Shown here in pieces: positions 30,276-62,816 of a stretch of DNA of 64,000 bases. A model generated the notes under the pieces. It had not been told where the DNA came from. It saw only the letters and a list, made by a program, of their open reading frames with translations, and ran no database searches. Position numbers and translations under genes: made by a program. The first letter of the stretch is position 1. The number at the start of each line of letters is the position of its first letter. Source of the stretch: Haliotis cracherodii (Eukaryota); assembly GCF_022045235.1 (NCBI RefSeq), contig NW_027266266.1, positions 4,953,848 through 5,017,847 on the forward strand, written 5' to 3'.

Positions 30276-30319
30276 ATTGTTGTTCATGATCCATACCCAT
30301 CATGATGTGATTATGTGTG

Positions 30320-35639: not shown

Positions 35640-35810
35640 CTAATGCAGCAAGTTAAGACCTTCATGGTGTTCCCCCGTGCAATGACAGGTGCACACTTAG
35701 CAAGTGAAGATGTTCATGGTGTTCCCCCATGCCATGAACGGTGCTCATACAGCAATGGTGCAATGAACAGTGCTCATGCAGCAAGTGAAGACGTTCTTGG
35801 TGCCCATGGG
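35640..35810. repeat. tandem repeat, about 48-bp unit x3.6; the KCTD-like CDS terminates inside the first unit
   Basis: direct read. Confidence 0.8.
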
Positions 35811-38845: not shown

Positions 38846-41800
38846 GTTCAGTGGAATTGCAGAGGTCTTCGAACCAATTTTAACGAGTTACAACTTTTAA
38901 TACAAGAGTTTACGCCATCAGAAATCTGTCTTCAAGAGACGTATCTCTAACAGACCGAAACCTTTTTGCGTCGGTACAGTTCTTATCATTCATTTTCTCG
39001 GCCAGGTGTTAAATCTACTGGATGATCCACTGTTTTGGTGAAGCAGGACGTGATCCACAGCCCTGTTTCACTTCAAACTCATCTTCAAGCTGTTGCAGTG
39101 CGACTAACTTTACACATAACCTTTACACTGAGTTCTCTGTATAGTTTCTCCCTCCTCTGTGCTTCAGAGATCGGATCTTCAAGCCTTATATGATCAGTTC
39201 CCTAAGCCCTGCATGATCATGGGTGACTTTAACGGATATAACCCATTATGGGGAAGTGTTAAAGTTAATGTTAAGGGGGAAGTACTTGAAGATCTTATTC
39301 CGATAACAATTTATGCATTTTCAATGATGGGTCTGTCACATCTGTCACTAACAGATTCAAATCTATTAAACAAATTTACTTGGTCGGTCCACGATGACTT
39401 GTGTGGATGCGACCATTTTCCTACAATATTAACAGCAAATGATCCATCTGGTGGAATTACTTTAGGATTAACACCTGATATGTTCAGGACTGTTACCGAC
39501 CCTTTTCAATCGTTTTCGGATAAGCTGAATGAAATTGCTCATATAACCATTCCTAAGTCCTCTGCAAATCCACACATTTGAAAACCATGGTTTAATAAAG
39601 AGTGCAAACAGAATAGTAAGTGCAGGAAAAAAGCGTAGAAATATTTCCGCAAATATCGAACTGTACACAATTTAAATCATGTTAAAAACACAAATGTCAT
39701 GGCAAGCCGTACATTCAAACAGAATAAGCGTAAGTCCTTGAGGAATTTTGTCACTAAAATTAATTCTCGCACACCAATATCCAAGGTGTGGAACACGATT
39801 GCAAAATTAAAGGCAAAGTATCAAAATCGAGCGTCCACCATCTCAAGGAAGGTGACCATTCTGTTAACAGATAAATTGGATATTGCTAATAAATTGGGCG
39901 AAACGCTGGCCAAACACTCTTCATCATCGAACTATGATGCTAAGTTTCAAAAATATCAGAAACAACAGGAAAAGAAGAGGTTTGGTTTTATTTCGGTAAA
40001 TGGAGAAGATTACAATGAGGTATTTTCGCTCCACCAGCTAAATACTGCCCAAGGTCAAGCGCACGATACTGCAGCGAGAGTGGATAATATTCACTATCAG
40101 CCTGAAGCATTTGCCTGATTCATGTTTAGAGACACGTCTTGATATATTTGATCGGATCACGACGTCAGGAGATTTTCCTCCATCGTGGCGTAATGCAATA
40201 GTTTTTTCCCATACCTAAACCTGGTAGGGACCATACTTTTGCATCTAATTATAGACCAATATCACCAACCAGCTGTGTGTGCAAAACCAAGGGAACGAAT
40301 AGTAAATAATCGGCTGGTGTGGTACTTGGAAACCAACAATATCTTAGCTAACATTCAGTGTGGTTTCCGTCAAATAGAAGTACCATTAACCATCTGGTAC
40401 GTTCAGAATCGTTTGTCAAAAATGCCGTTGTAAATAATCAGCATGCATTATCAATCTTTTTTTTATTTAGTAAAAAGCGTATGATACCACATGGAAGCAT
40501 GGTATTTTAAAAGATCTACATGATTTGGGATTAAGAGCTTGTCCGCCTCAATATATATCCCTTTCTTTAACAGACCGACATTTTCATGTTCGTGTGGGTT
40601 CCACCCTGTGTGACCATTATAATCAGGATCAGGGTGTCCCACCAGGCTGTATTTTGTCGGTGACTCTGTTTAGCATAAAGATTGATAGTCTGTCAAAGGT
40701 TTTAAATGATTCAATTGATGGTTCCCTTTTTGTGGACGATGTTAATATTCCATGTCGTGGCAAAAATATGCATACCATCGAGAGACAGTTGCAGCTGTGT
40801 CTCAATAAAATCCCAAAATGGTGTCTTGAAAATGGTTTTAATTTTTCAAAAGCTAAGACCAATTGTAGTCATTTGTGTAGGAAATACAAGCACCACAAGG
40901 ATCCAGAAGTATTTTTACATGGCACTCCTATCAAGGCTGTAGAAGAGTCCAAGTTCCTGGGTCTCATTTTCGATCATCATTTGACTCTTGAGCCACATAT
41001 TAATTATCTCAAAACTAAATGCCTGAAGGCTCGAGATTTGTTGAAAGTTGTTGCTGATACAAAGTGGGGAGGTGATCAGACAAGCCTCCTCCACTTGTAT
41101 AGGTCTCTGATCCGCTCTAAATTAGATTATGGCTCCATCGTTTATGGTGGAGCCTGTAAGAGCAATTTACACAAATTAGATTCAAGTCACCACCAGGGCC
41201 TAAGATTATGTCTTGGCGCATTTCGAACATCTCCCGTGGATAGCCAATACGTAATGTAGAAGCTGATGAACCATCTTTGAATCAACGGCGCTTTGAATCA
41301 AATTATCGCTTCAATACATTACAAAATTACATTCTAACCCATTAAACCCTGCTTACAAATGTGTTTTTGAACCCCTTTACGACGAACTTTTTCACAGTAA
41401 GTCTAAGCTCCACTAGGAATACGAATTAAACCCCACAGTACAGCTGCCAATATTGATTTAGATAATATTTCTCCTGTCAGTCTTTAATCTTCAACTTCTT
41501 GGCAACTTATCAGACCGGGAGTAGTCTTTACTTACACATTTTTAAAAATCAGACACAAATAATATATCAACAAGAATATATACAAGTTAGAACTAAATAT
41601 GAATCCCACCATTCTATTTTTAAAGATGGATCCAAGGATGGTGGCAGTCTCCAGTGCTGCTGTTATTATGCCGCATCATCCCGATTACCAGACCATAGCT
41701 CAATTTTTACTGCTGAAGCCAAGGCCATTTCAAAGGCTTTAGAATATATTCAAAAACAATCTAGCTGCAAAGGGTTTATCATCTTGTCAGATTCACTAGA

Positions 41801-42544
41801 TTGTCTACAGGCAATAAAAACGAACTCTTCAAGTCATCCATTCATTTAAGTTATTTTAGAATTATACAATGAACTTGCAACTGGCCAATACATCGTCTTT
41901 TGCTGGTTGCCCAGTCATGTTGGAATTGCAGGTAACACTATGGCTGATACATTTTGATAATACGCATTGTAAAAAGTAAGTGATTTCAATTTAGCAGAAT
42001 GATTATATAACTATGATTGTTAGTGGCTGTACCTTCAAAAGGAGTTGAAGTAACGTAAAATAATTGTCCCCCTGAAAGGGTACGTTAGTCCCAATACATT
42101 CAAAGTATGTTTCATTTTCCATGGTTTTAATCGTAGAATAATTGTAGGTTTTAAATCTTTCTAACAATCATCAGTAGCCAGAGGAATGGTGGAAATCCTG
42201 GTACCAAGCAGGAAGCAGATGTACCGTAAGTCCCCATGGTCCGTAGTATGGTGCGACTATGCTTGTCGTAAAACTAACCAACCAACCAACCGTAGTATGG
42301 TGGTCTAACTTTGGTTGCTGATGATCCATAGCCCATTTGTATAGTGTATCGTTATTTGTAGTTACATTTTTATGGTTACATGCTAGTTTTAAATCTATCT
42401 CTGTATTAATATAATCCTTTTACCGTCCCTCGTCAACAGATTTTATAGTCTATAATTATGTATAATTACTGCACAACTTGATTTAGTCACGTTATGGCTG
42501 CAATATTGCCGATGTGACTATAAATCTAAACTCACTCACTCACC
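38846..42544 (+). mobile_element. non-LTR retrotransposon (LINE), 5'-truncated and frameshifted. Contains an APE endonuclease (VQWNCRGLRTNFNELQLL..ICLQETYL; ..IMGDFNGYNPLWGS), a reverse transcriptase (..FVDDVNIPCRGKN..; 40525-41259), an RNase H (..IFTAEAKAISKALEYI..IILSDSLDCLQAIK; ..CWLPSHVGIAGNTMAD), a roughly 600-bp 3' UTR, and a tail ending (ctca)n
   Basis: domain motifs read from the ORFs at 38846-38950, 39159-39581, 40525-41259 and 41499-41960; the 3' UTR matches 5261-5806. Confidence 0.85.
42254..42289 (-). mobile_element. 36-bp SINE family A tail fragment (cgactatgcttgtcgtaaaactaaccaaccaaccaa) inserted in the LINE 3' UTR
   Basis: perfect 13-bp target-site duplication ccgtagtatggtg at 42241-42253 and 42290-42302. 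Confidence 0.75.
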
Positions 42545-42964: not shown

Positions 42965-44166
42965 ACTATCTAGTCGTCACTTTCGTTGGGATTTACTATC
43001 TAGTCGTCACTATCGTTGGGATTTACTATCTAGTCGTCACTTTCGTTGGGATTTTCTATCTAGTCGTCACTATCGTTGGGATTTACTATCTAGTTGTCAC
43101 TATCGTTCGGATTTACGATCTAGTCGTCACTATCGTTGGGAATTACGATCTAGTCGTCACTATCGTTGGGATTTACTATCTAGTCGTCCCTTTCGTTGGG
43201 ATTTACTATTTAGTCGTCACTATCGTTGGGATTTACCATCTGGTCGTTACTATCGTTGGGATTTACTATCTGGTCGTCACTATCGTTGGGATTTACTATT
43301 TAGTCGTCACTATCGTTGGGATTTACTATTTAGTCGTCACTATCGTTGGGATTTTCTTTTTAGTCGTCACTATCGTTGAGATATACTATTAGGTCGTCAC
43401 TATTGTTGGGATTTACTATTTAGTCATCACTATCGTTGGGATTTACTATTTAGTCGTCACTATCGTTGGGATTTACTATTTAGTCGTCACTATCGTTGGG
43501 ATTTACTATTTAGTCATCACTATCGTTGGGATTTACTATTTAGTCGTCACTATCGTTGGGATTTACTATTTATTCATCACTATCGTTGGGATTTTACTAT
43601 CTAGTCGTCACTATCGTTGGGATTAACTTTTGAGTCAGCACTATCTTTGGATTTACTTTTTAGTCCTCATTATCATTAGGATTTACTATTTAGTCATCAC
43701 TATCGTTGGGATTTACTATTTAGTCGTCACTATCGTTGAGATTTACTATTTAGTCGTCACTATCGTTGGGATTCACTATTTAGTCATCACTATCGTTGGG
43801 ATTTACTATTTAGTCGTCACTATCGTTGGGATTTACTATTTAGTCATCACTATCGTTGGGATTTTACTATCTAGTCGTCACTATCGTTGGGATTAACTTT
43901 TGAGTCAGCACTATCTTTGGATTTACTTTTTAGTCCTCATTATCATTAGGATTTACTATTTAGTCGTCACTATCGCTGGGATTTACTATTTAGTCGTCGC
44001 TATCCTTGGGATTTACTATTTAGTCGTCACTATCGTTGAGATTTACTATTTAGTCGTCGCTATCCTTGGGATTTACTATTTAGTAGTCGCTATCCTTTGG
44101 ATTTACTATTTAGTCGTCACTATCGTTGGGATTTACTATTTAGTCATGACTATCACTGGGATTTAG
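42965..44166. repeat. satellite, 30-bp unit x about 40 (ctagtcgtcactatcgttgggatttactat), with a roughly 270-bp higher-order repeat (43600-43870 matches 43870-44140)
   Basis: direct read; variant units gattaacttttgagtcagcactatctttgg recur 270 bp apart. Confidence 0.9.
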
Positions 44167-46959: not shown

Positions 46960-47104
46960 TTATAGGTGGCTGCTGCGGAGCCAGGTTTCCAGGTTCGAGA
47001 TCTGTTTCTCCACGCTCGACTTGGCGGTTCCTCCGTACGCTGTGTACTGGTCCACCGAGTTCTCATAGTTCCACACATTGGCCACATCACTCTCGAACAG
47101 TGGG
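46960..47104 (-). CDS. ASL: argininosuccinate lyase, last coding exon (S)[47 protein letters not shown]
   Basis: aligns with the human ASL C-terminus ..[39 protein letters not shown].. (recalled from memory); acceptor cag| at 47105-47107. Confidence 0.9.
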
Positions 47105-47310
47105 CTGCCGGTACAAACGGAGTGAATGAGTGACATGGAATTTGAACTGCTTTTACAGTGACAAATAATGTCAAATTGAGAACACCACAAACCTGGGCAT
47201 TCAACATTTTGAGCAATATTGCTTTAACCACTTGACTACCCCACCACCCCTTCAATGGAACAAGTCATGCAGAACTAATTCAGAAACAGCTACGGTCGTT
47301 TCGGTCGTTT

Positions 47311-47468
47311 GCTGTTTAACGCCACACTCAGTAGTATTCCAGCTATATGACGGCGGTCTGTAAATAATCGAGTCTGGACCACACAATCCAGTGATGGATA
47401 TCATGAGCATCAATCCACACAATTAGGATACGATGACATGTATCAACCAAGTCAGCGAGCCTGACCAC
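47311..47468 (-). mobile_element. SINE family A copy in an ASL intron
   Basis: family A similarity. Confidence 0.7.
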
Positions 47469-47636
47469 AATAGCTTTTGGACTCCACTATGACATCAAAT
47501 GATATAGTTCTGATCATGCAAACATGCCTACTTTAAATGCTCTGAAATATATTGGAATTATTACATGACGGAGATCTACACATCAACGTGCTGGCCGCGA
47601 CCCTCGGGGACGGCTCACTTCACTTTAGTGCTCTAC

Positions 47637-47743
47637 CTGACAGTCTTGAGGTCTTCCAAGAGGAGCTTCTCCATGACGCAGCCCTTCCTCTCCGCCAGCG
47701 CCACACAGCCGCCAGCCAATGAGTGGGCCTCACGGAACGGAAC
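47637..47743 (-). CDS. ASL: ASL exon: VPFREAHSLAGGCVALAERKGCVMEKLLLEDLKTV(S)
   Basis: matches human [29 protein letters not shown]; acceptor tttccctgtgcag|, donor |gtagag. Confidence 0.9.
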
Positions 47744-48249
47744 CTGCACAGGGAAACACAGAATCTCACCCAAGTGTCGAAAAACTATTTCTTTGTCATG
47801 TCCCTGAACAGGCTTTGTGATTACAATACTTCACTGTATTTCAAAAGTTATCCAGTATATCTCAATTAAGTTTTAAGTCTTGTACCGTTAATCCGACATG
47901 GTTGATTACATATGATTACGTTGGATTAACGAGTATGTCGGATAAATGAAATTAAGTAGAATCAATGTTCATGATGGAAAATCGGACAACTACATGATAG
48001 ATAATGTTGTAATAAAAAAAGGAAAAAGAAATATTCAAATTGTTGTATTACATTGTCAGCGGAATGTGTTTTTTGTAATCATGTAACCTCTAAAGTTCAA
48101 CACAAAACAACTGTTACGGGCTGTATGAGTGATTGAAAATACTTTTAAAAGCATAGTCTGGAATGGAAGTCATCAGTATGGAACTTGTGCCGCAATGCTT
48201 AAGAAAGCTGCTTTCTTATTGGCTAATGTCAAGGTCATTATGATGTGAC

Positions 48250-48312
48250 CTGTAATGGGATATCCTCAGCGGTAGCGATAACTTGTATCTGATTTTAATT
48301 AGATTGAGGTAA
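48250..48312. mobile_element. solo TIR fragment of MITE family 1
   Basis: cctgtaatgggatatcctcag..gatctgattttaatt matches the 3' TIR at 59980-60048. Confidence 0.5.
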
Positions 48313-48632
48313 TATAAGCATGTGATTAAACCTGTTTTGTTTATTTAAAGTATTAATTGTTAATTGTATCAAAACACGGGCTGCATACTTGCGGGCAGAT
48401 GACCACAGAGAATGCTGATCACTGTGTCGGATTATCGAGACTGATTAATGAGTGATTCAGCAATTCTTTGCAAATTAGGTGTTTCTGAGTCGGAGTGCGA
48501 GACTTCGGATTAATGGGTCTAAATAGCACTGATTTAATCGGTTCCCATCATTAGTGTCGGATAAAGCCGATTGTCTTATTAACGAGACTTGATTGTAGAT
48601 GGTTCATGTATATGACATAGAGGGATAATGGG

Positions 48633-48870
48633 TGGGTGAGTGGGTGAGTTGGGTTTAACGCCGCTTTTAACAGTATTCCAGTTATATCACAGCGTGTCAG
48701 CTTAATGTGGGAGGAAAGCCCGAAGTGATGCAGGTCTCAGACGTTTACCACTTCGGTGAAACCCACGAGCACGGGTATGGTGCTGACAAACCTAGAAACA
48801 TAATCGGGGCGAACCGGGATTCGAACCCACAATCATAGGTTTCTGGCGTGACCAAGGGACGCAACTCTGC
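48633..48870 (-). mobile_element. SINE family C copy in an ASL intron
   Basis: about 97% identical to 2136-2420; target-site duplication agagggataatgg at 48619-48631 and 48871-48883. Confidence 0.85.
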
Positions 48871-48964
48871 AGAGGGATAATGGATGCAATATTACAACCT
48901 TATTGTAATCGGCACGGAAATCAGTGTCTCACAAGCGCACAATGACATGGCCACTACCCTACTT

Positions 48965-49135
48965 GAGTGAGTGAGGGAGGGAGCGACTGATATTTTATGC
49001 CGCTTTTAGCAATATTCCAGCAGCATCACGGTGGCTGACACCAGAGATGGGCATCACACATTATACCAATGTAGGGAATCAAACCCAGGCCTGTGTGTAA
49101 CGAGTGAACTCTTTCACCACTAGGCTGCCCGACCA
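48965..49135 (-). mobile_element. SINE family B inverted copy in an ASL intron
   Basis: gagtgagtgaggga..ccgcttttagcaatattccagcagcatcacggtgg...ggaatcaaacccagg...ctaggctgcccgacc. Confidence 0.75.
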
Positions 49136-49287
49136 TCCCTACCTGCTAGAACAGTAACTACTGAAAAACAAAATTTGTATTCTCCCTCCATGAACCACTG
49201 ATGAGAAAGCCTGCTGGATCTAACTGACGACATACATTCTAAACTACTACAGCTCTGGGCGATTATTTGGCTTAAATCTAAAACATG

Positions 49288-49368
49288 GAGACCTTACCCC
49301 TTTCCTGACGAGGTAGTAGGCCACATCGGTTGCCAGCATGTCGGAGCTGAGCGCTGCACTCATGGAAT
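49288..49368 (-). CDS. ASL: ASL exon: [27 protein letters not shown]
   Basis: matches human [27 protein letters not shown]; acceptor atatgtttcag|, donor |gtaagg. Confidence 0.85.
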
Positions 49369-49486
49369 CAGGGTAGATCTGAAACATATCAATCGTGGAT
49401 TCTGCACCATTATATTCCTGCAACATCATGAGGCAAGATGAGTGAACGCTTTAACCACACGGGCACCTCACTGCTTCACAACAACA

Positions 49487-49845
49487 ATAAAGCTGAAAAT
49501 AAATATACTCACCGCCAAAAGAGACGCGAACCATAGAAACATATAGAGAAGTATGTACGTTAAGAAGAGATTTTCAAATGTGTACCACTTAATGACAAAA
49601 CTTACAATCAGTCAAGTGTTACCACAGAGTGTCTTTATTCTTATCACGATATGCCGCATGTGAATTCCAAATTTCACACGCTAATCCTGCACGAGACAAA
49701 TGGTGCATCTGGATTCATGGATCTATGACGTTACATGTGATGCGTTCGTCAGCGTCGGTTCACACACCGTACCAGTATGTTCGTTTGTGCATTGAACCAA
49801 TCTTATATCTCTTGAATATGAGTAATTCTTCATATTAACCAATGC
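49487..49845 (-). mobile_element. MITE family 3, partial inverted copy
   Basis: reverse-complement similarity to 63440-63790, including the TIR actcaccRccaaaagaRacgcRaa..catatagag. Confidence 0.6.
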
Positions 49846-50012
49846 GTATTAAGCTGACACGCCGTGATATAACTGGAATACTGTTAAAAGCGGCGTTAAA
49901 CCCAACTCACTCACTCACTCACAATAACACAGGGCCCGGCAAACTTTTGGCAAACTGTGTGTGTGTGATAAACATATGCTCTATTTATATTTCAATGCAA
50001 ACAGTAACATAC

Positions 50013-50096
50013 CTTCAGGGTAGAGAGGACACCCGTCGCCACCTGTAGAATGCCAGCCAGGGTGTCATAGGTGTCAAACATGGCCTCCTTGTCTTC
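50013..50096 (-). CDS. ASL: ASL exon: [28 protein letters not shown]
   Basis: matches human [28 protein letters not shown]; donor |gtatg, acceptor ag|. Confidence 0.9.
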
Positions 50097-51506
50097 CTAA
50101 GTAAAGCAATAGGGCAACTGGTCAGTCAGTGATCTCATCACCAGGGTGGGGTCAACCACGCCTCAACAATCACGAGAATTACTCATCCTCATGTACTGTA
50201 CATTGATGATATTATATTTGTGTTCATGTCATACTATGTTCACGACATCAGTGTCTAAATCCCGTTATTTCCTGAGTGGGAGCTTAAACATAGTATGACA
50301 TGAACACAAATATAATGTTCTATTTATTAACGAAGAAGATGTCTACATACAAAGACAAATTTTAGTGTTTACTTAAAAGGACAGCAAGTCGCAACAGTAG
50401 CAGAATCACAATTTATCGACGTCTTCAGCTATGATGTCGTGTCTCGTGTTACGTCATTCCAACCTCACTTCACAATAAGATTTGAATGACGTCAACAATG
50501 CCATCCGTATGACGGAGAAATACACTGTTGTCTCGTGACATGATCACACACTACGAGCACATATGATTTTATGAACTCTTATATGTTTGCCCTCTTAGGT
50601 AATTAAAATAATTACCCTTGACGAAGTCAAAATGAGAAAACAATGACCCGAGCCATGAGGAGGTCAGACCAGACCGAGGCTGAGGTCCGGTAAAACCGCT
50701 GAAGGGGTTGGGTCCGAGGGTCCTTGTTTTCGCATATTGACCTTGTCATTTTAATCAATCGTTATGTTGTACTGAAATTCACTTGAAAGTTTATGAAGTC
50801 TTTCAACCCTTCTCTGTTTCATTACAGTAACATAGCTGCGAACCGTAAAATGTTAATATGCTAGATGCCATCTTGTTTTCTAGCAGATGAGTCAGTATTC
50901 ATCACATGACAGGTCAATACTGATCATGTGACAGGTCATTCTTCGAGGTCAGTGTCAGTCACATGATTTGGGGGTCTACATTGAAATGTATTGTTTCGTT
51001 ACGTGGTACAGATTAATGAATGGAATTGCAAGATTCTTAATAGAGGTATAACAAGAATCATTGTCTGTAAACATTTAAATTTCTGAGAAGAGTGACTTTT
51101 CTCTAACATTGTTATTTTCCCAGTATCCATGACTACATAATGGCGGCTACTGATCTTGCGGACTTTCACATCGTAATATTTACTTTAATATGTAGAAAAT
51201 ACCAGCGATTTGTGTCAAACACTTCAGCTCCAGATATATCGCAATACATCGCAATACAGAAACTATCACAATATATTTCAAACACTTAATTATAAGTCAT
51301 ACTTCCAAATTTCATGTTTTCTAATTGCTTAAAATTTATATATATGATGAGTAGTTGTGCTGTACACAATTTATTTTCCAAAAACAGTAGTGTCATGAAA
51401 TAATATCAATCACTTTGAAAAAAGTTTGCCAGGCTTGAAGTTGTCAGACAAAATGGCATGTATTGTACCACTTAGGATTTTACTACTAGTCTCTCAATAG
51501 AAAATG

Positions 51507-51762
51507 TCAGTAAATGACCTGTAAATGACCTGTATATGTCCTGTAAATGTCCTGTAAATGTCCTGTAAATGTCCTGAATATGTCCTGTAGATCTTAATGT
51601 CTTGTAGAGGTCGCCTAAATGACCTGTAAATGACCTGTAAATGTCCTGTAAATGTCCTGTACATGTCCTGAATATGTCCTGTAGATCTTATTGTCTTGTA
51701 GAGGTCGCCTAAATGACCAGTAAATGTCCTGTAAATGTCCTGTAAATGTAGATGTAAATTAC
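51507..51762. repeat. tandem repeat, 11-bp unit (cctgtaaatgt) within a roughly 120-bp higher-order unit, starting at position +6 of the ASL intron
   Basis: direct read; the intron begins gtaatttacatctacatttacaggacatttacagg... Confidence 0.85.
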
Positions 51763-51822
51763 CTGGAGGTCCTTGTTATAGGTGCTGGGAATCCCCTTCA
51801 GGGACATCATGAACCCCGAACA
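51763..51822 (-). CDS. ASL: ASL exon: [20 protein letters not shown]
   Basis: matches human [20 protein letters not shown]; acceptor gttgcag|, donor |gtaatt. Confidence 0.9.
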
Positions 51823-52056
51823 CTGCAACATCACGGACAATACATCTGTCATGGGACTCATCACACAAGCAAGGGAGTAAACTCATGCTGCTTTCTAATT
51901 ACTCTTTATTGATTCTATTAGGACTCGTTGTTCAAGTGCTACACTGTGATCTCAGGCAGAACAGGGGAGTAATACAATCATCCCTATTTATCACAGTTTA
52001 ATTTGACTCATTTAAAAAACCAATCACTACAAAAACGACTTTTCCTAAAGTAACGT

Positions 52057-52216
52057 GTAGCGGCCATAAAATTTTCGAGTCCCGTGATGGGATTCGAACC
52101 ACGGACCTTCTGATCCGAGGTCGGACGCCTTGTCCACATGACCAAAGAGGTTAACCCCGTCAGCAAGCTGACAAGGTAAGGATGTCATCTGTGGGATGAC
52201 TCCACGCCCTGCTACA
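52057..52216 (-). mobile_element. SINE family D; the reverse complement has a tRNA-like head (..GGTTAACCTCTTTGGTCATGTGGACAAGGCGTCCGACCTCGGATCAGAAGGTCCGTGGTTCGAATCCCATCACGGGACTC)
   Basis: four copies, all in ASL introns in the same orientation as the gene. Confidence 0.7.
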
Positions 52217-52320
52217 TACTCCCCCGTCAACAGAAGGCACGTCCCGGGCCGCATAGTAGGGTACTGAGGCTTATTTTGCTCAAATTTGATATGAACGTGC
52301 TCAGCCCCACGTTGGGCGCC

Positions 52321-52483
52321 AATGTAGCGGCCATAAAATTTCCGAGTCCCGTGATGGGATTCGAACCACGGACCTTCTGATCCGAGGTCGGACGCCTTGT
52401 CCACATGACCAAAGAGGTTAACCCCGTCAGCAAGCTGACAAGGTAAGGATGTCATCTGTGGGATGACTCCACGCCCTGCTACA
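52321..52483 (-). mobile_element. SINE family D, second adjacent copy (a tandem pair about 275 bp apart)
   Basis: about 99% identical to 52057-52216. Confidence 0.75.
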
Positions 52484-52521
52484 AACGCATTAATTGAAGT
52501 AGTCATGAGAGTGATGATTGC

Positions 52522-52612
52522 ATGTTGTTTTATGCTTCAGTCAGCAATATTCCAGCTATATCATGGTAGCCTGTAATAGTTGCGTTGAGGCCAGGCAGAC
52601 CAGTGACTGCAA
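52522..52612 (-). mobile_element. SINE family A fragment
   Basis: ttgttttatgcttcagtcagcaatattccagctatatcatggtagcctgtaat. Confidence 0.55.
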
Positions 52613-52661
52613 GCAGACTTCTAGGGACTTATAGAACTCCTGAATCACTGCAGGCACAATG

Positions 52662-53760
<1,099 letters not shown>

Positions 53761-53874
53761 TCATTAACTCAGTCACATCATCATCATCATCATACTGACA
53801 GACTGATTGTGGCCCACAAGGCCTTACTGACATTTAATGTACATCCATGAGTGAGTGAGTATGGTTTTACGCAT

Positions 53875-54115
53875 CTTCTTGAGGCAAGAGAGTTAACTGA
53901 CTATGAAAGTCCAATTTCCACCCTTGCCGAACTAGGCTGGAATTCCTGGGCTCAATCGTAGCGCCACCATTGGCTATTATGAGTTATGTCCCTTCTAAGC
54001 CTCTCCTATGGACCAATCAGAGTCCACCTCTCGTATGACTTGTATTTGCTTCAAACATAATGGCGGCACCCAGTCAAGACGATCTGATCGATTGGGAAGA
54101 TTTGGAAAATTACTG
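53875..54115. mobile_element. MITE family 2 fragment (TIR plus internal)
   Basis: gaggcaagagagttaactgactatgaaagtccaatttccacccttgccgaactaggctgg.. similar to 15640-15900. Confidence 0.6.
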
Positions 54116-54223
54116 TTGATAAACACACTTTTTGCTTATTACTATGCATCAGTGAATCTGACAAAACTACTGATGAATCATTCCATTCCGACAAAACTAC
54201 TGACTGAATCATAATTTTGAAAC

Positions 54224-55603
54224 AAAGCTCCACTATTGCTACAACACTGATCCATACTGACCTGTATGCGTCCGAGAGCGTGACAAAGCTCCACTACTGC
54301 TACAACACTGATCCATACTGACCTGTATGCGTCCGAGAGCGTGACAAAGCTCCACTACTGCTACAACACTGATCCATACTGACCTGTATGCGTTCGAGAG
54401 CGTGACAAAGCTCCACTATTGCTACAACACTGATCCATTCTGACCTGTATGCGTCCGAGAGTGTGACAAAGCTCCACTATTGCTACAACACTGATCTATT
54501 CTGACCTGTATGCGTCCGAGAGTGTGACAAAGCTCCACTATTGCTACAACACTGATCCATACTGACCTGTATGCGTCCGAGGGTGTGACAAAGCTCCACT
54601 ATTGCTACAACACTGATCCATACTGACCTGTATGCGTCTGAGAGTGTGACAAAGCTCCGGTATTGCTACAACACTGATCCATACTGACCTGTATGCGTCC
54701 GAGAGTGTGACAAAGCTCCACTATTGCTACAACACTGATCCATACTGACCTGTATGCGTCCGAGAGTGTGACAAAGCTCCACTATTGCTACAGCACTGAT
54801 CCTTTCTGACCTGTATGCGTCCGAGAGCGTGACAAAGCTCCACTATTGCTACAACACTGATCCATACTGACCTGTATGCGTCCGAGAGTGTGACAAAGCT
54901 CCGCTATTGCTACAACACTGATCCATACTGACCTGTATGCGTCCGAGAGCGTGACAAAGCTCCACTACTGCTACAACACTGATCCATACTGACCTGTATG
55001 CGTCCGAGAGCGTGACAAAGCTCCACTACTGCTACAACACTGATCCATACTGACCTGTATGCGTTCGAGAGCGTGACAAAGCTCCACTATTGCTACAACA
55101 CTGATCCATTCTGACCTGTATGCGTCCGAGAGTGTGACAAAGCTCCGCTATTGCTACAACACTGATCCATTCTGACCTGTATGCGTCCGAGAGTGTGACA
55201 AAGCTCCACTATTGCTACAACACTGATCCATACTGACCTGTATGCATCCGAGGGTGTGACAAAGCTCCACTATTGCTACAACACTGATCCATACTGACCT
55301 GTATGCGTCCGAGAGTGTGACAAAGCTCCGCTATTGCTACAACACTGATCCATACTGACCTGTATGCGTCCGAGAGTGTGACAAAGCTCCACTATTGCTA
55401 CAACACTGATCCATACTGACCTGTATGCGTCCGAGAGTGTGACAAAGCTCCACTATTGCTACAATACTGATCCATTCTGACCTGTATGCGTCCGAGAGTG
55501 TGACAAAGCTCGACTATTGCTACAACACTGATCCATTCTGACCTGTATGCGTCCGAGAGCGTGACAAAGCTCCACTAATGCTACAACACTGATCCATACT
55601 GAC
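54224..55603. repeat. minisatellite, 60-bp unit x about 23; each unit is the last 29 nt of the ASL exon at 55604-55718 plus the first 31 nt of the intron
   Basis: unit ctgtatgcgtccgagagYgtgacaaagctccactaYtgctacaacactgatccatactgac versus the exon end ctgtatgcgtccgagagcgtgacaaagct|GAACTCC. Confidence 0.9.
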
Positions 55604-55718
55604 CTGTATGCGTCCGAGAGCGTGACAAAGCTGAACTCCTTGGTGGAGTAGAGGATGAGGTCCTCCGCCCAGCGGCTGAGGTGAGTGCTGAGCAGTGACG
55701 CCCAGAACAGAAACTCCA
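55604..55718 (-). CDS. ASL: ASL exon: (V)[37 protein letters not shown](S)
   Basis: matches human [39 protein letters not shown]; acceptor tgtttcag|, donor AG|gtcagt. Confidence 0.9.
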
Positions 55719-55868
55719 CTGAAACATGGCGGAACAGGACGCAAACTCAGCAACAGATACAGAGACGCCCCAGCTTAAGGCAATTAGGAATATCTGGGAT
55801 AATTGGCTTCTAAATTAGCAAAAGTTAATCAAATATTCATGATTGTTCGACTACTTAAAGCAATGAAC

Positions 55869-56095
55869 CCGTGAAGTTCCAGGGTAGAATAGGTCTTCAG
55901 CAACCCATGCTTGCCATAAAAGGCGACTAAGGTGATCGGGCAGTCAGGCTCGCTGACTTGGTTGATGCATGTCATGGATCCCAATTGCGTAGATCTATGC
56001 TCATGATATCAATCACTGTATTGTCTGGTCCAGACTTGATTATTTACAGACCACCGTCATATAGCTGGAATATTTCTGAGTGCAGCAAACCAACC
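55869..56095 (+). mobile_element. SINE family A copy
   Basis: family A similarity plus tail module. Confidence 0.7.
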
Positions 56096-56214
56096 TTTAA
56101 ATCATGAAATTAACGCATTACAAATTAAAGATGAGCAACAGCCCCTAGCCTAAAATGAGTCCCGAAATTATTGCGAGTAGCCCTATCTTTGAAATTTAAA
56201 AAACGACAACACTA

Positions 56215-56300
56215 TTTGTTGTTTGTTGTTTAATGCCGCCCTCAGCAATATTACAACTATATGACGACGGTCTGTAAATAATCCAGTCTGGACCAGACAA
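56215..56300 (-). mobile_element. SINE family A 3' fragment ending 6 bp from the ASL splice donor at 56306
   Basis: cgccctcagcaatattacaactatatgacgacggtctgtaaataatccagtctggaccagacaa. Confidence 0.65.
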
Positions 56301-56305
56301 CTCAC

Positions 56306-56368
56306 CGACAAAGTCTCGGTCACTGACTGCATCCAAACTGTTTCCTGTCACATCCCCAAGGCCAAGTT
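56306..56368 (-). CDS. ASL: ASL exon: (E)LGLGDVTGNSLDAVSDRDFV
   Basis: matches human [21 protein letters not shown]; acceptor ggtttcag|, donor |gtgagt. Confidence 0.85.
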
Positions 56369-56544
56369 CTGAAACCAAAGATCGATTCATTGACACCACA
56401 TTCTATATATTCATGCTGAGTGATATGTATTTAGTCTTTTTGTTTGTAACATGGCTAAACATTATTTTTTCACTTCTGCTTCCAGTCAACAAATAAAATG
56501 TGTAAAGAACTGACTTCAATACTTTTCGCTTTAAAGGAGCAACA

Positions 56545-56658
56545 TCACGATGGGGAACACCAGAAAGGGGCTTCACACATTGTACCCATGTCGGGAATCA
56601 AACCCGGGTCTTTGGTGTGACGAGCGAATGCTTTAACATCTAGGCTACCCCACCGCCA
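56545..56658 (-). mobile_element. SINE family B head, inverted
   Basis: reverse complement of GGCGGTGGGGTAGCCTAGATGTTAAAGCATTCGCTCGTCACACCAAAGACCCGGGTTTGATTCCCGACATGGGTAC. Confidence 0.7.
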
Positions 56659-56755
56659 ATCGCTTTAATGGATGCCACAAAGTTACTAGAAATTTAGACA
56701 TTCTTGTCTAAACACCTTTTGAAACATGACACAGAAATAAGAACACTCGTTTTAC

Positions 56756-56808
56756 CTTTAGCAAGGAAGTCTCTGTCAACATCGAACGGATTCCCAGCCA
56801 GTGCACCA
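56756..56808 (-). CDS. ASL: ASL exon: (S)GALAGNPFDVDRDFLAK
   Basis: matches human SGAIAGNPLGVDRELLRA; acceptor ttgtttag|, donor |gtaaaa. Confidence 0.85.
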
Positions 56809-56825
56809 CTAAACAAGAACAACAA

Positions 56826-57070
56826 GTGAGTGAGACTAGTTTAACACCGCTTTGAACCGCATTTCAGTTATATCACGGCATGACAAAACTGAAATAAGAT
56901 GTTTACCACCTTGTTGAAATGCAGCCACACAGGAATGGTGTTGACAATCTTAAAAATGCTATCAGTGTGAATCTGTAAATCAACCCCGCAATCACAGATT
57001 TCTCTCATACATAAGGGACACAACTCTGTACAGCAAGTTGTTGGGCCTTTGACAACTGGGCCACCTGTGA
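56826..57070 (-). mobile_element. SINE family C, diverged copy
   Basis: gagtgagac..ttaacaccgct...atcacggc..ccac..ggaatggtgttgacaa similar to 2136-2420. Confidence 0.6.
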
Positions 57071-57309
57071 CCTTGAAAAGATTGATGATCTCAATACCAG
57101 GTAATTATGTGTTAAGAACACACAAAAATTGAGTGAACAATTTCTAAACTACAAATACACATGTACATTTGTAAAGTGCTTATTTCCCACTGAAAATCAG
57201 CACCTGGACAATATTTTAATAGTATTAAAATTTAAATATTTTAATCAACTGTTTTTATGACATGATTTACTGCTTTTTCAAATGCAGACCATAGGCATGT
57301 GATAACATG

Positions 57310-57900
57310 AATTAGTATATAATAGGGGTGAAACGATACAGCAAGGTCATGATATGATACTTATCCCAATACATAGGTCACTATACGATATGTATCGCGG
57401 TACGCATATTTACGTCAATTCGCATGGAAACTTCTTGACCATAAATATTTCAGAGAAAGTTCCAAGGGAAAAGCAACATGTAGACACATGTTTGTAGCGG
57501 CTGTTGTGAATAGTGAACTTGAAAGGCTAATTACAACACATTTTGCAATATCTGACTGACAACACCACTGGGATTAAGGTGGGGGTGGGGCAGTGGATGG
57601 AGGTGGGTGTGTTGGGGTGTGGGTGGGGGTAAAGGTGTGGTTGTGGATAGGGAGGGGGTGAGGGTGTGGTTCGGGGTGGGGATAGAGGTGTGGTTGTGGA
57701 AAGGGGCGGGAGTGGGGGTGGATGGGGGTGGGGGTGGGGTTGGGGGTAAAGGTGTGGTTGTGGATGGGGGCGGGGGTGTGGGTCATTAAACAAGTAGTAA
57801 GTAACTTATTTTAGCAAGTGTATCAACTTGAATGAAAAATGAATTGTGTATTGCATAGTCACATGAAAACTCCCGATGCACCGATGTATCAGTTCACCCC
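57310..57900 (+). mobile_element. interspersed repeat R1, copy 2, with an internal G-rich minisatellite (57570-57790) expanded
   Basis: collinear similarity to 45370-45900. Confidence 0.6.
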
Positions 57901-57944
57901 TGGTATATAAAATCCCATGATGGTCATAAGAAGTGACAAACAGG

Positions 57945-58060
57945 ATCGGTGGTCAGTGTGTCCATCACTGGATTGTCTGGTCGTGACTCGATTATTTACA
58001 GACCAACATCATAAAGCCGGAATATTGTAGAGTGCAGCGTTAAACAACGAACGCACAAAT
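57945..58060 (+). mobile_element. SINE family A fragment
   Basis: ..cactggattgtctggtcgtgactcgattatttacagacc..gccggaatattgtagagtgcagcgttaaacaacgaacg. Confidence 0.6.
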
Positions 58061-58127
58061 GATACAAACATATCATCTATTTCAAACTGCATGCTCTCTT
58101 CAGAGGAGACAACTCTGTCAGTACTGA

Positions 58128-58205
58128 CCTGCCAAGGGGCAAAACTGCTGTTCTCTCCCTCAACTGGTCAAGTCTCTTCAGATCTCGCTGCAACATCCAC
58201 CCATA
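58128..58205 (-). CDS. ASL: ASL exon: (S)YGWMLQRDLKRLDQLRERTAVLPLG(S)
   Basis: matches human [27 protein letters not shown]; acceptor gtgttcag|, donor |gtcagt. Confidence 0.85.
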
Positions 58206-58254
58206 GCTGAACACAACAGGGACGAAGAAGTGGTCATACAAGTTTAGAGTTAAG

Positions 58255-58467
58255 AGAGTTGGATGAGATGACACTTTGAAGAATATTTCACATCATCACG
58301 GTATATCAGCTTCATGTGAAGGAAAGCCTGAAGTGACATAGGTCTTGGACGTTTATCACCTTGCAAAAACCACGAGAAAGGATATGGTGCTGACAAACCT
58401 TGAAACATAAGCAGAGAGAACCAATGACGATAATTTTCTGGCACCCTAAGGGATGCAACTCTGCCCT
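58255..58467 (-). mobile_element. SINE family C, diverged copy
   Basis: ..gaaggaaagcctgaagtgacataggtcttggacgtttatcacc...ggtgctgacaaacc..gaaacataa. Confidence 0.55.
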
Positions 58468-59256
58468 ATGAACTGGGGTGCTTCAGGTAACTGAGGGCCC
58501 TCTTGCCCTACCCTGATGCTAGAAATAAGGGCTGGGACGAGTCCACATTTACTACCCGGGTACCCACCCCGCTATTACCTGACCCTACCTGGTAACTGCT
58601 GCAGGCCTCAAGAGCTTGGAACATAATGTGTCATTGGGAATTGTCTTACATGAGCCCTGGCAAAAACTGAACTTGACTGAAGCTTTATCTTTATTCAAAA
58701 ACATAAAAGTCAGAAGGAATGTGTGCATAGTCAGAAAAAATGGGGACATCAGAGTTTTGTAGTGTAACCATGGAGTTACAGTGAGTTTTTGTCATTAAAC
58801 AATATATCATGTGACTAACATGGGTCCGGGTTGTACCGGAGTTACCTGTCCAGCACCTAGCTAAAACAGAACATAATCACAACAACTTCTACTCATAAAA
58901 TTCTATCAAATGAACGTCAGTTTGGAAGGGATTTGCCATCTCCATGACAACAATCATGTACCCATTGGGCATACCAGTACATAACCTAAATAACAAAGTA
59001 TCATTTGATACTTTGACCATGTTTATGTTAATCAAACTGCATAAAAAATATTCCAAAGGGCTTACATATCAGAAATAACATTTTTTCAATTTATACACCT
59101 TTATCACAAATTACTTAATTTTATAATAACTCTGATAAATGATCAATAAAACTGTTCTCTTTCCCACTGCTATACTCTAACTCAAGCTTATTCTATTAAT
59201 ATTATTTCTTTAGAAACTATTTTTGCAGCCACCGACTCAAACTCACAAAGACTCAC

Positions 59257-59334
59257 CTAAGCAACCAGTGGCTCCATCTGATTGGCTGTGCTCTCTGCAG
59301 GTGTGTGTAACCAGGTAGTAAAATGTCAATTTCT
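59257..59334 (-). CDS. ASL: ASL exon: (S)[25 protein letters not shown](S)
   Basis: matches human [26 protein letters not shown]; acceptor atatttttcag|, donor |gtgagt. Confidence 0.9.
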
Positions 59335-59473
59335 CTGAAAAATATTTCAAACAAATTATTGGCAAAGTTAAAAGAAAAAAACATTTGAAGAAAAAGGAAA
59401 GCTGGTATCATTTATTGTGATTGTGTCAATACAGAAAGCTATCACCACTAACTTCACAGTTGATTTGCAATCT

Positions 59474-60048
59474 CATTAAAATCAGATCTGAGTTCTCGCT
59501 GCTGCTAAACAAAGATCTGAGGACATCCCATTTACGGGTCACGTCAGACCGACCTTTCGCGAACTTTGACCGACTACTGAATTGACCTACAAGAAGTCGA
59601 CATCAGCCAGTTACAAAGCAGCTTTCTCGAGCATTACGGCAATCGTTTCAACCTGGTGGCTTCCATTTCAGATTACGCTTGAAAAATATGTTGACACAGT
59701 TCTCGATTAAAATTTTGAAAACTGAACAAACGAACATTCCGGAATGTCTAATATATGGTTGAGATTGTATAGCAATGCTTCCCACATACTGTGCAACGCC
59801 TCCTCCGTTCAAATGTTTATCCCACTGAAGCAAGAGATAGACGATAATTTTGACGAATCAGTCGTACGGGTCGTAACTGTCGTTCGGAATACTCCGTGTT
59901 GACGTTTTCAAGGTTGCATGATTAGAAAACACATTTCAACGGTCACTTTCATGATCCGGTCGGATGAAAGGTCGTTCTGACATGCCCCGTAATGGGATGT
60001 CCTCAGATCTTTGTTTAGCGATAGCGAGAACTAGGATCTGATTTTAAT
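59474..60048. mobile_element. MITE family 1, complete copy of about 575 bp with TIRs of about 75 bp (cattaaaatcagatctgagttctcgctgctgctaaacaaagatctgaggacatcccatttacgggtcacgtcagaccgacctttc)
   Basis: 59474-59550 is the reverse complement of 59975-60048; the internal region is about 90% identical to 3470-3870; no coding capacity. Confidence 0.8.
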
Positions 60049-60456
60049 TGGGATTGGGTTGATTTGCTGTGTAGTCAAATCAAGACGCAGCCTGATTCAA
60101 GCAAAAAGGAAGCCAGCGTATGCTCAGATTAAATCACAGGAACAACAATGTGTGTCAGTGAACATGTGCCATAGCTTTACAGTCTCATCTCCTTAATACA
60201 CTGTTTCTGTATCAGGCAATGGTAGGGTTCTCAAAAGATATGCCCAGAGCATGACTCATTTGATTTCTGTGATCATTTAGTGAACTAAAAATAAATACAC
60301 ATTAAGCGACATTATTGAAACCTGTAAACCCTCACTTTCTTGGTGTACTGGTATTGCTTGTTTGTTCTGGTTGCTGTTAAACACTTCACTCAATAAACAA
60401 TTGGCCAGTAAATAATCAAGTCTGGACCTGACAATTCAGTGAATCGATATTGTGAC

Positions 60457-60618
60457 TGTAGCGGTCAAAAGATTTCAGAGTCCCGTGATGGGATTCGAAC
60501 CACGGTCCTTCTGATCATAGGTCGGACGCCTTGTCCATGTGACCAAAGAGGTTAACCCTGTCAGCAAGCTGACAAGGTAAGGATGTCATCTGTGGGACAA
60601 CTCCACGCCCTGCTACAT
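60457..60618 (-). mobile_element. SINE family D copy
   Basis: similar to 52057-52216. Confidence 0.7.
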
Positions 60619-60792
60619 GAGCAACTATGTCATCGGGGTCTGAAGACACACAATCAACCATGTCAGCAAGCTTGACCACTCAATCCATGATCACCTCTTA
60701 CGACCAGCGTAGGTTGGTGGGGGCCAATACAACCTGGATTCCCCAATGGGCGACTCGCATTAAGCTGACATTCTCTTCATCAGTGTACTCAC

Positions 60793-60947
60793 GACTTGGC
60801 CCTGTTGAGGATGACGCTGATGAAGTCGGTGAGGTAAGTGCGGAGCTGCAGCTGGGCGTCTCTCATCCACAGCCTCATGTCGGTGGCCACCTGGTCATTG
60901 CGGCTCCGGCCCGTGTGCAGCTTGCCTCCTGCTGCACCGATCAACTC
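60793..60947 (-). CDS. ASL: ASL exon: [51 protein letters not shown](S)
   Basis: matches human [30 protein letters not shown]....LLWELIRTMVDRAEAE; acceptor tgtttcag|, donor TC|gtgagt. Confidence 0.9.
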
Positions 60948-62150
60948 CTGAAACATTCACACCATCGTCACCTGCACTGACGCTTCTCTTAATTTAGTCA
61001 TCCTGCTGCACCGATCAACTCCTGAAACATTCACACCATCGTCACCTGCACTGACGCTTCTCTTAATCTAGTCATCCTGCTGCACCGATCAACTCCTGAA
61101 ACATTCACACCATCGTCTCCTGCACTGACGCTTCTCTTAATTTAGTCATCCTGCTGCACCGATCAACTCCTGAAACATTCACACCATCGTCTCCTGCACT
61201 GACGCTTCTCTTAATTTAGTCATCCTGCTGCACCGATCAACTCCTGAAACATTCACACCATCGTCTCCTGCACTGACGCTTCTCTTAATTTAGTCATCCT
61301 ACTGCACCGATCAACTCCTGAAACATTCACACCATCGTCACCTGCACTGATGCTTCTCTTAATTTAGTCATCCTGCTGCACCGATCAACTCCTGAAACAT
61401 TCACACCATCGTCTCCTGCACTGACGCTTCTCTTAATTTAGTCATCCTACTGCACCGATCAACTCCTGAAACATTCACACCATCGTCTCCTGCACTGACG
61501 CTTCTCTTAATTTAGTCATCCTACTGCACCGATCAACTCCTGAAACATTCACACCATCGTCTCCTGCACTGAAGCTTCTCTCAATTTAGTCATCCTGCTG
61601 CACCAATCAACTCCTGAAACATTCACACCATCGTCACCTGCACTGACGCTTGCTTCTCTTAATTTAGTCATCCTGCTGCACCAATCAACTCCGGAAACAT
61701 TCACACCATCGTCACCTGCACTGACGCTTGCTTCTCTTAATTTAGTCATCCTGCTGCACCGATCAACTCCTGAAACATTCACACCATCGTCACCTGCACT
61801 GATGCAGCTCTTAATTTAGTCATCCTGCTGCACCAATCAACTCCTAAAACATTCACACAATCGTCACCTGCACTGACGCTTCTCTTAATTTAGTCATCCT
61901 GCTGCACCAATCAACTCCTGAAACATTCACACCATCGTCACCTGCACTGACGCTTCTCTTAATTTAGTCATCCTGCTGCATGATCAACTCCTGAAACATT
62001 CACACAAGCATGTCTATCGCCACCTGCACTGACGTGTTTCTTAAGTTAGTTATCTTGTTGCACCGATAAGCTCCTGAAGCATTGACAAAACAATGTCCAT
62101 CGTCTCCTGCACTGAAGTTTTTCTTAACTTAGACCTTATCCTAATCCTGA
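60948..62150. repeat. minisatellite, about 62-bp unit x about 17 (degenerating after 62000); each unit is the last 14 nt of the ASL intron (the acceptor) plus the first 20 nt of the exon at 60928-60947
   Basis: unit ctgaaacattcacaccatcgtcacctgcactgacgcttctcttaatttagtcatcctgctgcaccgatcaactc versus the junction ..cctgctgcaccgatcaactc|ctgaaacattcac. Confidence 0.9.
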
Positions 62151-62223
62151 TCAACATAGTAAAAAAACATGAACATGTTCTGTTCCAAAAATTTTTTGTC
62201 CCTGAATAACTCTGAATAACAAC

Positions 62224-62307
62224 CTTGAGCCTCCTCTCATTGGCAGTGTGGATGTCTTCGTCCCCTGGCTTCAGCTCAAACTCATCTTTCTGCCACTCCT
62301 CTTTAAC
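62224..62307 (-). CDS. ASL: ASL exon: [28 protein letters not shown]
   Basis: matches human [28 protein letters not shown]; acceptor tgtttgcag|, donor |gttgtt (weak consensus). Confidence 0.85.
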
Positions 62308-62729
62308 CTGCAAACACATCAAATTCCCGAGTCAGTGATTAACAATGGTCCAGCAACATCAGAGGGCCAAGACAAAAGTGAGTTATCCGCCCATGAGTGG
62401 AGGTCCTATTTCATTCCCCAAACTGGTAGTACATTCTTCACTGATACCTACCAAAGACCGTCTTTCTCGATGATTTGTCTGAATCTCCATAAATGCAGTT
62501 TACTGGCATTCAAAATGACACTTCCAGCCATATCTCGCTGTAAATTGTGAACCAGACCATACTTTCTAAAGACTTCTAAATTGCATCCTCAAATGTAAGA
62601 ACATATGAACTTTACAATCATTAGTAATTTTAAACTGTTTCCCAGTTTGCCTATCATGGGCGCTTAGCTTAAGATCCTAGATAAATCTCTGAGACACACA
62701 CCAGAGACCCTTCAGGTTGTAAACGTCAC

Positions 62730-62816
62730 CTTCTCCAAGCCACCAAGTATGGAGTCCCTCTCGGCCGCCGTCACAATGCCCACCTTCTCCAGGGCCTTCA
62801 CATACGCCTGACTTCC
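62730..62816 (-). CDS. ASL: ASL exon: GSQAYVKALEKVGIVTAAERDSILGGLEK
   Basis: matches human [29 protein letters not shown]; acceptor ttgtttcag|, donor |gtgacg; the exons for the first 50 or so residues were not found and are probably beyond 64000. Confidence 0.85.

Follow-up and report, generated by a model that had tools for sequence, protein, structure and literature searches.

The sequence analyzed here, referred to below as the window, is a stretch of 64,000 nucleotides from Haliotis cracherodii (contig NW_027266266.1, positions 4,953,848 to 5,017,847). Its minus strand carries 14 exons (W1-W14) of the gene for argininosuccinate lyase (ASL), one intron of which ends in a tandem array built from copies of its own 3′ splice site and of the beginning of the following exon, W3. 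We refer to this repeat as array A. The gene was recognized by its PF00206 and PF14698 domains, and in a protein search the spliced 14-exon model matched the RefSeq entry "argininosuccinate lyase-like [Haliotis cracherodii]" at 100% identity over its full length, in agreement with the gene assignment made in the original prediction. Exons were placed by tblastn with an ASL probe and their junctions were then set by hand. Every junction in the resulting model is GT-AG, and the model forms an open frame of 424 codons with a stop at its end. Two further coding exons lie past the window end, as seen from the upstream exons visible in orthologous loci. The H. cracherodii protein is 99% identical to that of H. 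rufescens, 97% to that of H. rubra and 96% to that of H. asinina.

Anatomy of array A and of the donor-type arrays

Array A adjoins exon W3 directly, on its upstream side in transcript sense. Tandem Repeats Finder (TRF) reported it with a period of 74, 14.5 copies and 95% matches, and gave a second row with a period of 83 in which older copies extend to 62132; degenerate copies reach approximately 62152. The unit comprises 53 nt of intron ending in tttcag and 21 nt of exon start, and thus runs from -53 to +21. Each unit reads tgaatgtttcag followed by the exon start, and the layout on the minus strand is ...gtgacgatggtgtgaatgtttcag|GAGTTGATCGGTGCAGCAGGA tgactaaattaagagaagcgtcagtgcag..., where the 21 nt of exon common to all units are GAGTTGATCGGTGCAGCAGGA. 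Exon W3 itself opens with GAGTTGATCGGTGCAGCAGGAGGCAAG in transcript sense, and the peptide that it encodes ends in ...NRAK(S). The terminal unit of the array, which ends at 60927 and so reaches 21 nt into W3, holds the authentic junction and is the only copy to run on into the remainder of that exon. An anchored search found 16 acceptor-bearing copies, namely 15 decoys and the real site, and the AG is kept in 14 of the 15 decoys (the exception, at 61691, reads CG). The original prediction had described a repeat that adjoins this exon and whose unit combines its 3′ splice site with its first nucleotides, which the sequence and the unit alignment bear out. Its dimensions needed revision: the period given as 62 bp is 74 bp (78-83 bp in the older copies), the 20 nt of exon per unit are 21, and the tandem array of about 17 copies, though real, contains 16 that bear an acceptor.

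The copies of array A are 92-99% identical to the real unit. The unit alignment shows 1-6 differences between each young decoy and the real 74-nt unit; six decoys are only 1 nt off and match the real site fully between -22 and +21. The motif CAG|GTGACG stands 50 nt past the decoy AG in 9 of 16 copies, and GTGACG is the hexamer of the real W1 donor. The commonest variant, a T to A change at -23 (7 of 16 copies), removes the GT of this pseudo-donor as well as the U of a well-placed branch-point-like gUGAC. Predicted RNA accessibility in local folding was 0.44 for the real site and 0.25-0.57 for the decoys. Structural masking of the decoys is thus not supported, real and decoy sites being equally accessible in these predictions.

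Two features of the exons flanking this intron may be added. The W2 donor (window 62218-62224) is weak. H. cracherodii shares the sequence AAG|gttgtt with H. rufescens, and H. rubra shares AAG|gtcatt with H. asinina; the usual purine at +3 and the G at +5 are missing. Within W3, a hairpin GGTGCAGC-N9-GCTGCAC(A)C is predicted at window 60912-60939 (real exon +9..+36, approximately -17.5 kcal/mol in a 48-nt context); the decoys do not have it because its 3′ arm is missing from them.

Three further arrays within ASL (arrays B, C and D) are of the donor type, and in each of them the authentic donor is the most upstream copy. Array B corresponds to the donor-derived mirror array that had been placed at 54224-55603; the array was recovered, with a somewhat different extent in TRF (Table 1). 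The AG|GT is kept in 22 of 22 decoy donors of array B and the GT in 30 of 30 of array C. The first in-register unit of array D is the real W10 donor, AG|gtaatttac, which matches aggtcatttac at 10 of 11 positions; as called by TRF (51502-51749), this array begins 13 nt into the intron. TRF reported six arrays inside ASL, four of which lie within 13 nt of a junction, with three of those overlapping the junction, while the other two intronic arrays are repeats of about 2 copies. The post hoc probability of such clustering is about 2e-5 under uniform placement in non-array intron sequence, and about 0.01 when it is charged, again post hoc, against all of the approximately 25 arrays of the window. 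One of the two intronic arrays away from junctions is G-rich (C-rich in the transcript); it lies at window 57578-57783, midway along an ASL intron, and is shared with H. rufescens (L001 10791-11163).

Table 1. Coordinates of the ASL gene and its arrays in the window, with interspecies values and junction-spanning repeats of the comparison loci.
Feature	Position	Strand	Description
ASL gene, part in window	46960..62816	-	14 exons, W1-W14; W14 includes the stop
ASL exons W1-W5	62816-62730, 62307-62224, 60947-60793, 59334-59257, 58206-58129	-	
ASL exons W6-W10	56808-56756, 56368-56306, 55718-55604, 53740-53656, 51822-51763	-	
ASL exons W11-W14	50096-50013, 49378-49298, 47743-47637, 47104-46960	-	
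Exon W3	60793..60947	-	Array-bearing exon, coding exon 5; acceptor tttcag|GAGTTG, strong donor GTC|gtgagt
Intron W2/W3	60948..62223	-	1,276 nt: weak donor, about 60-70 nt unique, then array A to the real acceptor
Array A, young part	60927..62005	-	74-bp units, two of 78 bp; TRF, anchor search and unit alignment
Array A, young decoys	61990, 61917, 61843, 61769, 61691 (AG lost), 61613, 61539, 61465, 61391, 61317, 61243, 61169, 61095, 61021	-	First exon-like base of each
Array A, real site	60947	-	First base of exon W3
Array A, old part	62006..62152	-	Degenerate 81-83-nt copies: decoy 62073 and the 5′-most, ancestral-like copy
Array B	54222..55632	-	61 bp x 23.1; last 29 nt of W8 and 32 nt of intron from CAG|gtcagt
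Array C	52662..53656	-	32 bp x 31.1; begins at W9 donor AAT|gtatgtgg
Array D	51502..51765	-	11-bp unit acagg[a/t]cattt x ~23
Intron W2/W3 length by species			H. cracherodii 1276 nt; H. rufescens 672 nt; H. rubra 243 nt; H. asinina 153 nt
Array A copies (74/73 bp)			H. cracherodii 16, H. rufescens 8 (6.5-8)
Array B copies (61 bp)			H. cracherodii 23, H. rufescens 20.5
Array C copies (32 bp)			H. cracherodii 31, H. rufescens 64
Array D copies (11 bp)			H. cracherodii ~23, H. rufescens ~114
H. rubra junction duplications	L003 4066-4155, 9191-9433, 13970-14036		
Branchiostoma ASL arrays	L008 1930-2116, 3300-3504, 4328-4605, 6655-6976		

Origin and turnover in Haliotis

The orthologous ASL loci of H. 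rufescens, H. asinina and H. rubra were retrieved and their exons mapped. In H. rufescens all four arrays are present at the same junctions and with the same exon overlaps, in other copy numbers (Table 1). The ASL locus of H. asinina has none of arrays A-D and holds single-copy ancestors of their units, for example gtatgtggaagagtggttatgccatgtca for array C. The unit of array A can be aligned with the 3′ end of the orthologous intron and the exon start of both H. asinina and H. rubra, where this sequence is single-copy, and its local origin is directly visible in this comparison. The distribution among species also dates the array: it arose later than the branching of the H. rubra and H. asinina lineages, when H. 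cracherodii and H. rufescens still shared an ancestor. We propose that the 74-bp segment around the 3′ splice site (-53 to +21) was first tandemly duplicated and then amplified via unequal exchange or replication slippage, in the course of which an ancestral intron of approximately 150-250 nt would have grown to 1,276 nt with 15 decoys before the real acceptor. The ancestral intron of H. asinina contains CAGGA, as does the exon at +17..+21; an origin through microhomology is only suggestive, the 5′-most copy being too degenerate for proof.

The oldest 5′ unit of array A is orthologous in the two array-bearing species, with 93% identity between species versus 82% within. Among units 5-15 of the H. 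cracherodii array, pairwise identity is 97-100%, against 88.5-96% in comparisons with any unit of H. rufescens. Units near the exon are more similar within a species than across species, and each species has unit variants of its own. Old copies keep a 9-nt segment that is still found at the real acceptor of H. asinina and H. rubra, while in H. cracherodii these ancestral 9 nt are gone from the real acceptor, which has the derived 74-nt form. This means that the authentic site itself shares in the homogenization of the array. The unit sequences thus indicate that array A is still turning over and that even the 53 nt before the real acceptor were homogenized along with it.

H. rubra has independent 2-copy duplications of its own at ASL junctions (locus L003, Table 1). 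At W3, the acceptor and 10 nt of exon form part of a perfect 31-nt repeat with 40-nt spacing. The W2 donor region lies in a duplication of 79 nt, and the donor of coding exon 2 is spanned by a perfect 46 bp x 2 repeat. At W7, a 33 bp x 2 repeat stops 3 nt short of the acceptor AG. The ASL protein of H. rubra is flagged LOW QUALITY, and assembly error is possible for these duplications.

Decoy use, splice site choice and the nature of array A

We joined W2 in silico to the decoys of array A. Any such join reads ELIGAAG and then TGA, the stop being the 8th codon after the acceptor, and all joins hit a premature stop. The earlier statements that the units contain in-frame stops (TGA, TAA) and that use of a cryptic acceptor would truncate the protein therefore hold. 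Use of the decoy donors of arrays B, C and D in silico shifts the frame or meets a stop. Across all four arrays, 316-2061 nt separate the premature stop from the last junction downstream of it, which is the classical position for nonsense-mediated decay (NMD).

Because the RefSeq product matches our model at 100%, the annotated protein uses the last copy of array A as its acceptor, and the reading frame is conserved in four Haliotis species. Since six decoys are locally identical to the real site and their predicted accessibility is equal, the choice must depend on context outside the unit. The context unique to the last copy consists of the remaining 134 nt of exon W3 and the strong donor GTC|gtgagt, and we infer that these allow the last copy to be picked by exon definition. 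Transcripts joined to decoys, ending in ELIGAAG-TGA, would then be cleared by NMD. In the donor arrays B-D, the most upstream copy may be favoured by a 5′-to-3′ oriented selection, as demonstrated by experiment for the human F7 gene; such selection cannot explain the choice in array A, whose authentic acceptor is the most downstream copy. We consider it likely that array A is a minisatellite of the type called mirages, tolerated without a function of its own as a neutral or slightly costly by-product of frequent tandem duplication across junctions in this lineage, and exon definition and NMD would keep it silent.

Mirage minisatellites have been reported in the amphioxus Adh3 gene, a case credited to Canestro et al. 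2002, and in its globin (BflGb6/BflGb9), TnC and PGBD5 genes (PMC3087553; PMC3902484). They comprise donor and acceptor types, vary in length, undergo concerted evolution and leave splicing undisturbed (PMC3087553; PMC3902484), and for the acceptor type regular splicing was seen by reverse transcription PCR (RT-PCR; PMC3087553). Published units span 10 to about 160 bp. Array A belongs to this class of mirages or boundary variable number tandem repeats (VNTRs), already described in amphioxus and in human F7. It consists of head-to-tail units of minisatellite size (TRF) that carry an exon-intron boundary (53 nt of intron and 21 nt of exon), it is contiguous with the authentic junction as its terminal copy, and between species it shows length instability and concerted evolution (16 versus 8 copies). 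In mirages and abalone arrays alike, a splice site plus an exon fragment is repeated within the intron and the outermost copy is authentic; there are several arrays per gene, their length varies by haplotype or species, and their units evolve in concert. Array A stands out for its 15 decoy acceptors, compared with 3-6 units in the acceptor-type BflGb6, and for sharing its gene with three other arrays of this type; its host is a gastropod, not a cephalochordate. Acceptor-type mirages were examined by RT-PCR, whereas the abalone arrays are described here from genomic sequence.

In human F7, a 37-bp VNTR of intron 7 has its first unit across the exon 7 donor, and experiments with fifty constructs found the pseudo-donors to be functional and the most upstream donor always to be chosen (PMC1557585). 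Arrays B, C and D share this layout of an authentic donor followed by identical pseudo-donors, although the F7 VNTR has 5-9 copies and the abalone ASL arrays 15-30. Array A, in contrast, is an acceptor repeat with the authentic copy most downstream. Intron gain by tandem duplication with AG|GT (the Rogers model) has been described for potato RdRp (PMC4974935) and in a globin model (PMC3087553). As in array A, tandem duplication there yields extra splice signals and the copies end up intronic. However, duplication within an exon makes a new intron, whereas array A spans an existing junction and lengthens an existing intron from 153-243 nt to 1,276 nt, and no new intron position arises at array A in the four-species exon map.

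Array A also resembles NAGNAG acceptors in offering serial acceptor AGs to one donor. In NAGNAG acceptors the sites are 3 nt apart, in frame and both used, whereas in array A they are spaced by 74 nt, every decoy leads to a stop and the annotated product uses the last site. There is a further likeness to poison exons, as in 9 of the 16 units of array A an acceptor is followed by 50 nt that include an in-frame TGA and then by CAG|GTGACG, a plausible donor. Conservation is typical of known poison exons; array A is not conserved beyond two sister species, and its candidate pseudo-exons would have neighbours only 24 nt apart. Among the proteins searched there was no ASL derived from a Haliotis transcript. 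The array does not have a unit unrelated to the local sequence, as a dispersed satellite would. The mollusc and Haliotis literature, as far as it is searchable, contained no earlier junction-spanning array and only an ordinary polymorphic intronic minisatellite in TSSK1 of H. discus hannai.

The good preservation of the decoys (AG in 14 of 15, GT in 22 of 22 and 30 of 30) invites the idea that the arrays are functional decoy or "poison" clusters, regulated use of decoys or of 50-nt pseudo-exons leading to NMD and tuning ASL output, or else that the decoys recruit U2AF or U1 and thereby boost recognition of weak neighbouring sites. The nine acceptor-50 nt-donor units ending in the donor hexamer of a real ASL donor, the strong association with junctions, the weak real donor of the array-bearing intron (AAG|gttgtt) and the retention of all four arrays in two species would fit this idea. 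Young homogenized arrays are, however, expected to hold intact decoys anyway, and the decoys of published mirages and of the F7 VNTR play no part when splicing is normal. Neither H. asinina nor H. rubra, in which ASL is just as conserved, has the arrays; copy number differs 2- to 5-fold between the sister species (16/8, 31/64, ~23/~114), and the units change by turnover, not by conservation. Taking the two variants jointly, we judge a function of this kind to be quite improbable. The array might instead be leaky, with a sizeable share of the pre-mRNA lost to decoys and a mild load persisting because expansion and homogenization outrun selection. We regard this as unlikely, given that acceptor-type mirages in amphioxus are spliced regularly by RT-PCR (PMC3087553) and that the arrays outlived the H. 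cracherodii/H. rufescens split and grew further, even though six decoys are locally indistinguishable from the real site, structural masking finds no support in predicted folding, and scanning-type models favour upstream copies. The T to A change at -23 in 7 of 16 copies, which spoils the branch-point-like motif and the pseudo-donor as if weakened decoys were favoured, also speaks for some leakage.

Tandem arrays are a classic source of assembly errors, and a short repeat may be over-expanded or mis-joined. The independent H. rufescens assembly nevertheless has this array with the same boundaries, including the 21-nt overlap, and shares its old 5′ copies; variants follow an ordered pattern along the units, which are not identical, the window is without N, and the H. 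cracherodii reference was built from HiFi reads with an N50 of 16 kb at 37x (PMC9709981). Misassembly, named as a risk in the original prediction, was thus not upheld and is very improbable. An unrelated minisatellite or transposon repeat lying beside the exon by chance, its likeness to a splice site being a coincidence, might be imagined in a window that is rich in minisatellites (approximately 25 arrays, some beside transposon remnants). This is effectively refuted by the 92-99% match of the units to the real -53..+21 segment, by the alignment of the unit with the single-copy orthologous intron end of H. asinina, and by the derivation of the three other ASL arrays from their own junctions.

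Several points weigh against our interpretation of array A as a tolerated and silent by-product. Neutral tolerance leaves unexplained both the clustering of four of six ASL arrays at junctions and the independent duplication of three ASL junctions in H. rubra. The nine of 16 copies with CAG|GTGACG could themselves be defined as 50-nt pseudo-exons, which weakens a simple exon definition. Correct splicing is read from the conserved frame and from the RefSeq model, and protein homology may have guided how that model was built. A first-come-first-served view predicts use of an upstream copy, as do the classical duplicated-site experiments cited in PMC1557585, and we see no reason in the sequence why it should be otherwise.

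As controls, we examined ASL in other animals. The amphioxus (Branchiostoma) locus has four junction-spanning arrays (Table 1), and no array across an exon edge was found in the ASL loci of Littorina, Pecten and Patella. A donor array of Branchiostoma, AAAG|GTCAGTTGG (24 bp x 8.8), lies on the exon homologous to W3. A Pecten array located 25 nt from a donor was considered as a junction array and rejected, being unrelated to the donor sequence. It is conceivable, if somewhat doubtful, that splice junctions are favoured birthplaces of minisatellites in two or more distant animal lineages, abalone and amphioxus, through duplication coupled to transcription or splicing or through selection for arrays of decoy sites, in place of random placement with later tolerance, and that, separately, the 3′ site is set from downstream by exon definition. 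The presence of arrays in ASL of H. cracherodii and of duplications in that of H. rubra, and their absence from ASL of the three other molluscs, make the link between junctions and minisatellites testable by comparison.

If this were true, the 15-decoy array would show exon definition overriding 5′-to-3′ scanning or first-come-first-served choice in vivo. With 15 decoys transcribed before the real site, six of them locally indistinguishable from it, the locus is a natural experiment on 3′ splice site choice. It mirrors the F7 donor array that was used to argue for oriented scanning, and scanning would here give the wrong answer. Mirages are no longer restricted to amphioxus, as there are four in one abalone gene, which according to the searchable literature is new for molluscs. 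Such arrays inflate introns (153 nt to 1,276 nt) and can mislead gene predictors and short-read aligners, and for a critically endangered species they probably offer markers that are polymorphic in length.

Other features of the window

The approximately 25 minisatellite arrays of the window are of many kinds and also occur in intergenic and transposon DNA, which is consistent with a general mutational process. No multi-exon gene other than ASL was available in the window for comparison, which otherwise contains a KCTD gene and Tc1 and long interspersed nuclear element remnants only, and in H. rufescens the KCTD gene is the sole other gene within 10 kb of ASL. This KCTD-family gene (window 35777-36562, minus strand) has BTB_2 and KCTD_C domains in one open reading frame (ORF) of 262 codons, and its product is annotated as 302 aa in H. 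rufescens. A diverged 52-bp repeat (35628-35806) that begins in the 3′ coding end of the KCTD gene was considered as a junction array and rejected, as it contains no splice site.

A remnant of a Tc1/mariner-like transposase (HTH_32, DDE_3) lies at window 29006-29906, and the adjoining 29-, 32- and 48-bp minisatellites, which together occupy approximately 2.5 kb (29957-32443), may belong to the element. Fragments of a retrotransposon without long terminal repeats, with an endonuclease-reverse transcriptase domain and RVT_1, are present on the plus strand at window 39132-41846 and are broken by stops. A nested array at window 11583-12469, with periods of 7, 23, 30, 53 and 161 bp, has long ORFs on both strands that consist of repeat only, with no Pfam-type sequence apparent. 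A 30-bp x 40 array (window 42965-44165) lies downstream of ASL, approximately 3-4 kb from its stop. It has a counterpart at the corresponding place in H. rufescens (L001 27309-27588), so this intergenic array is older than the split of the two species.

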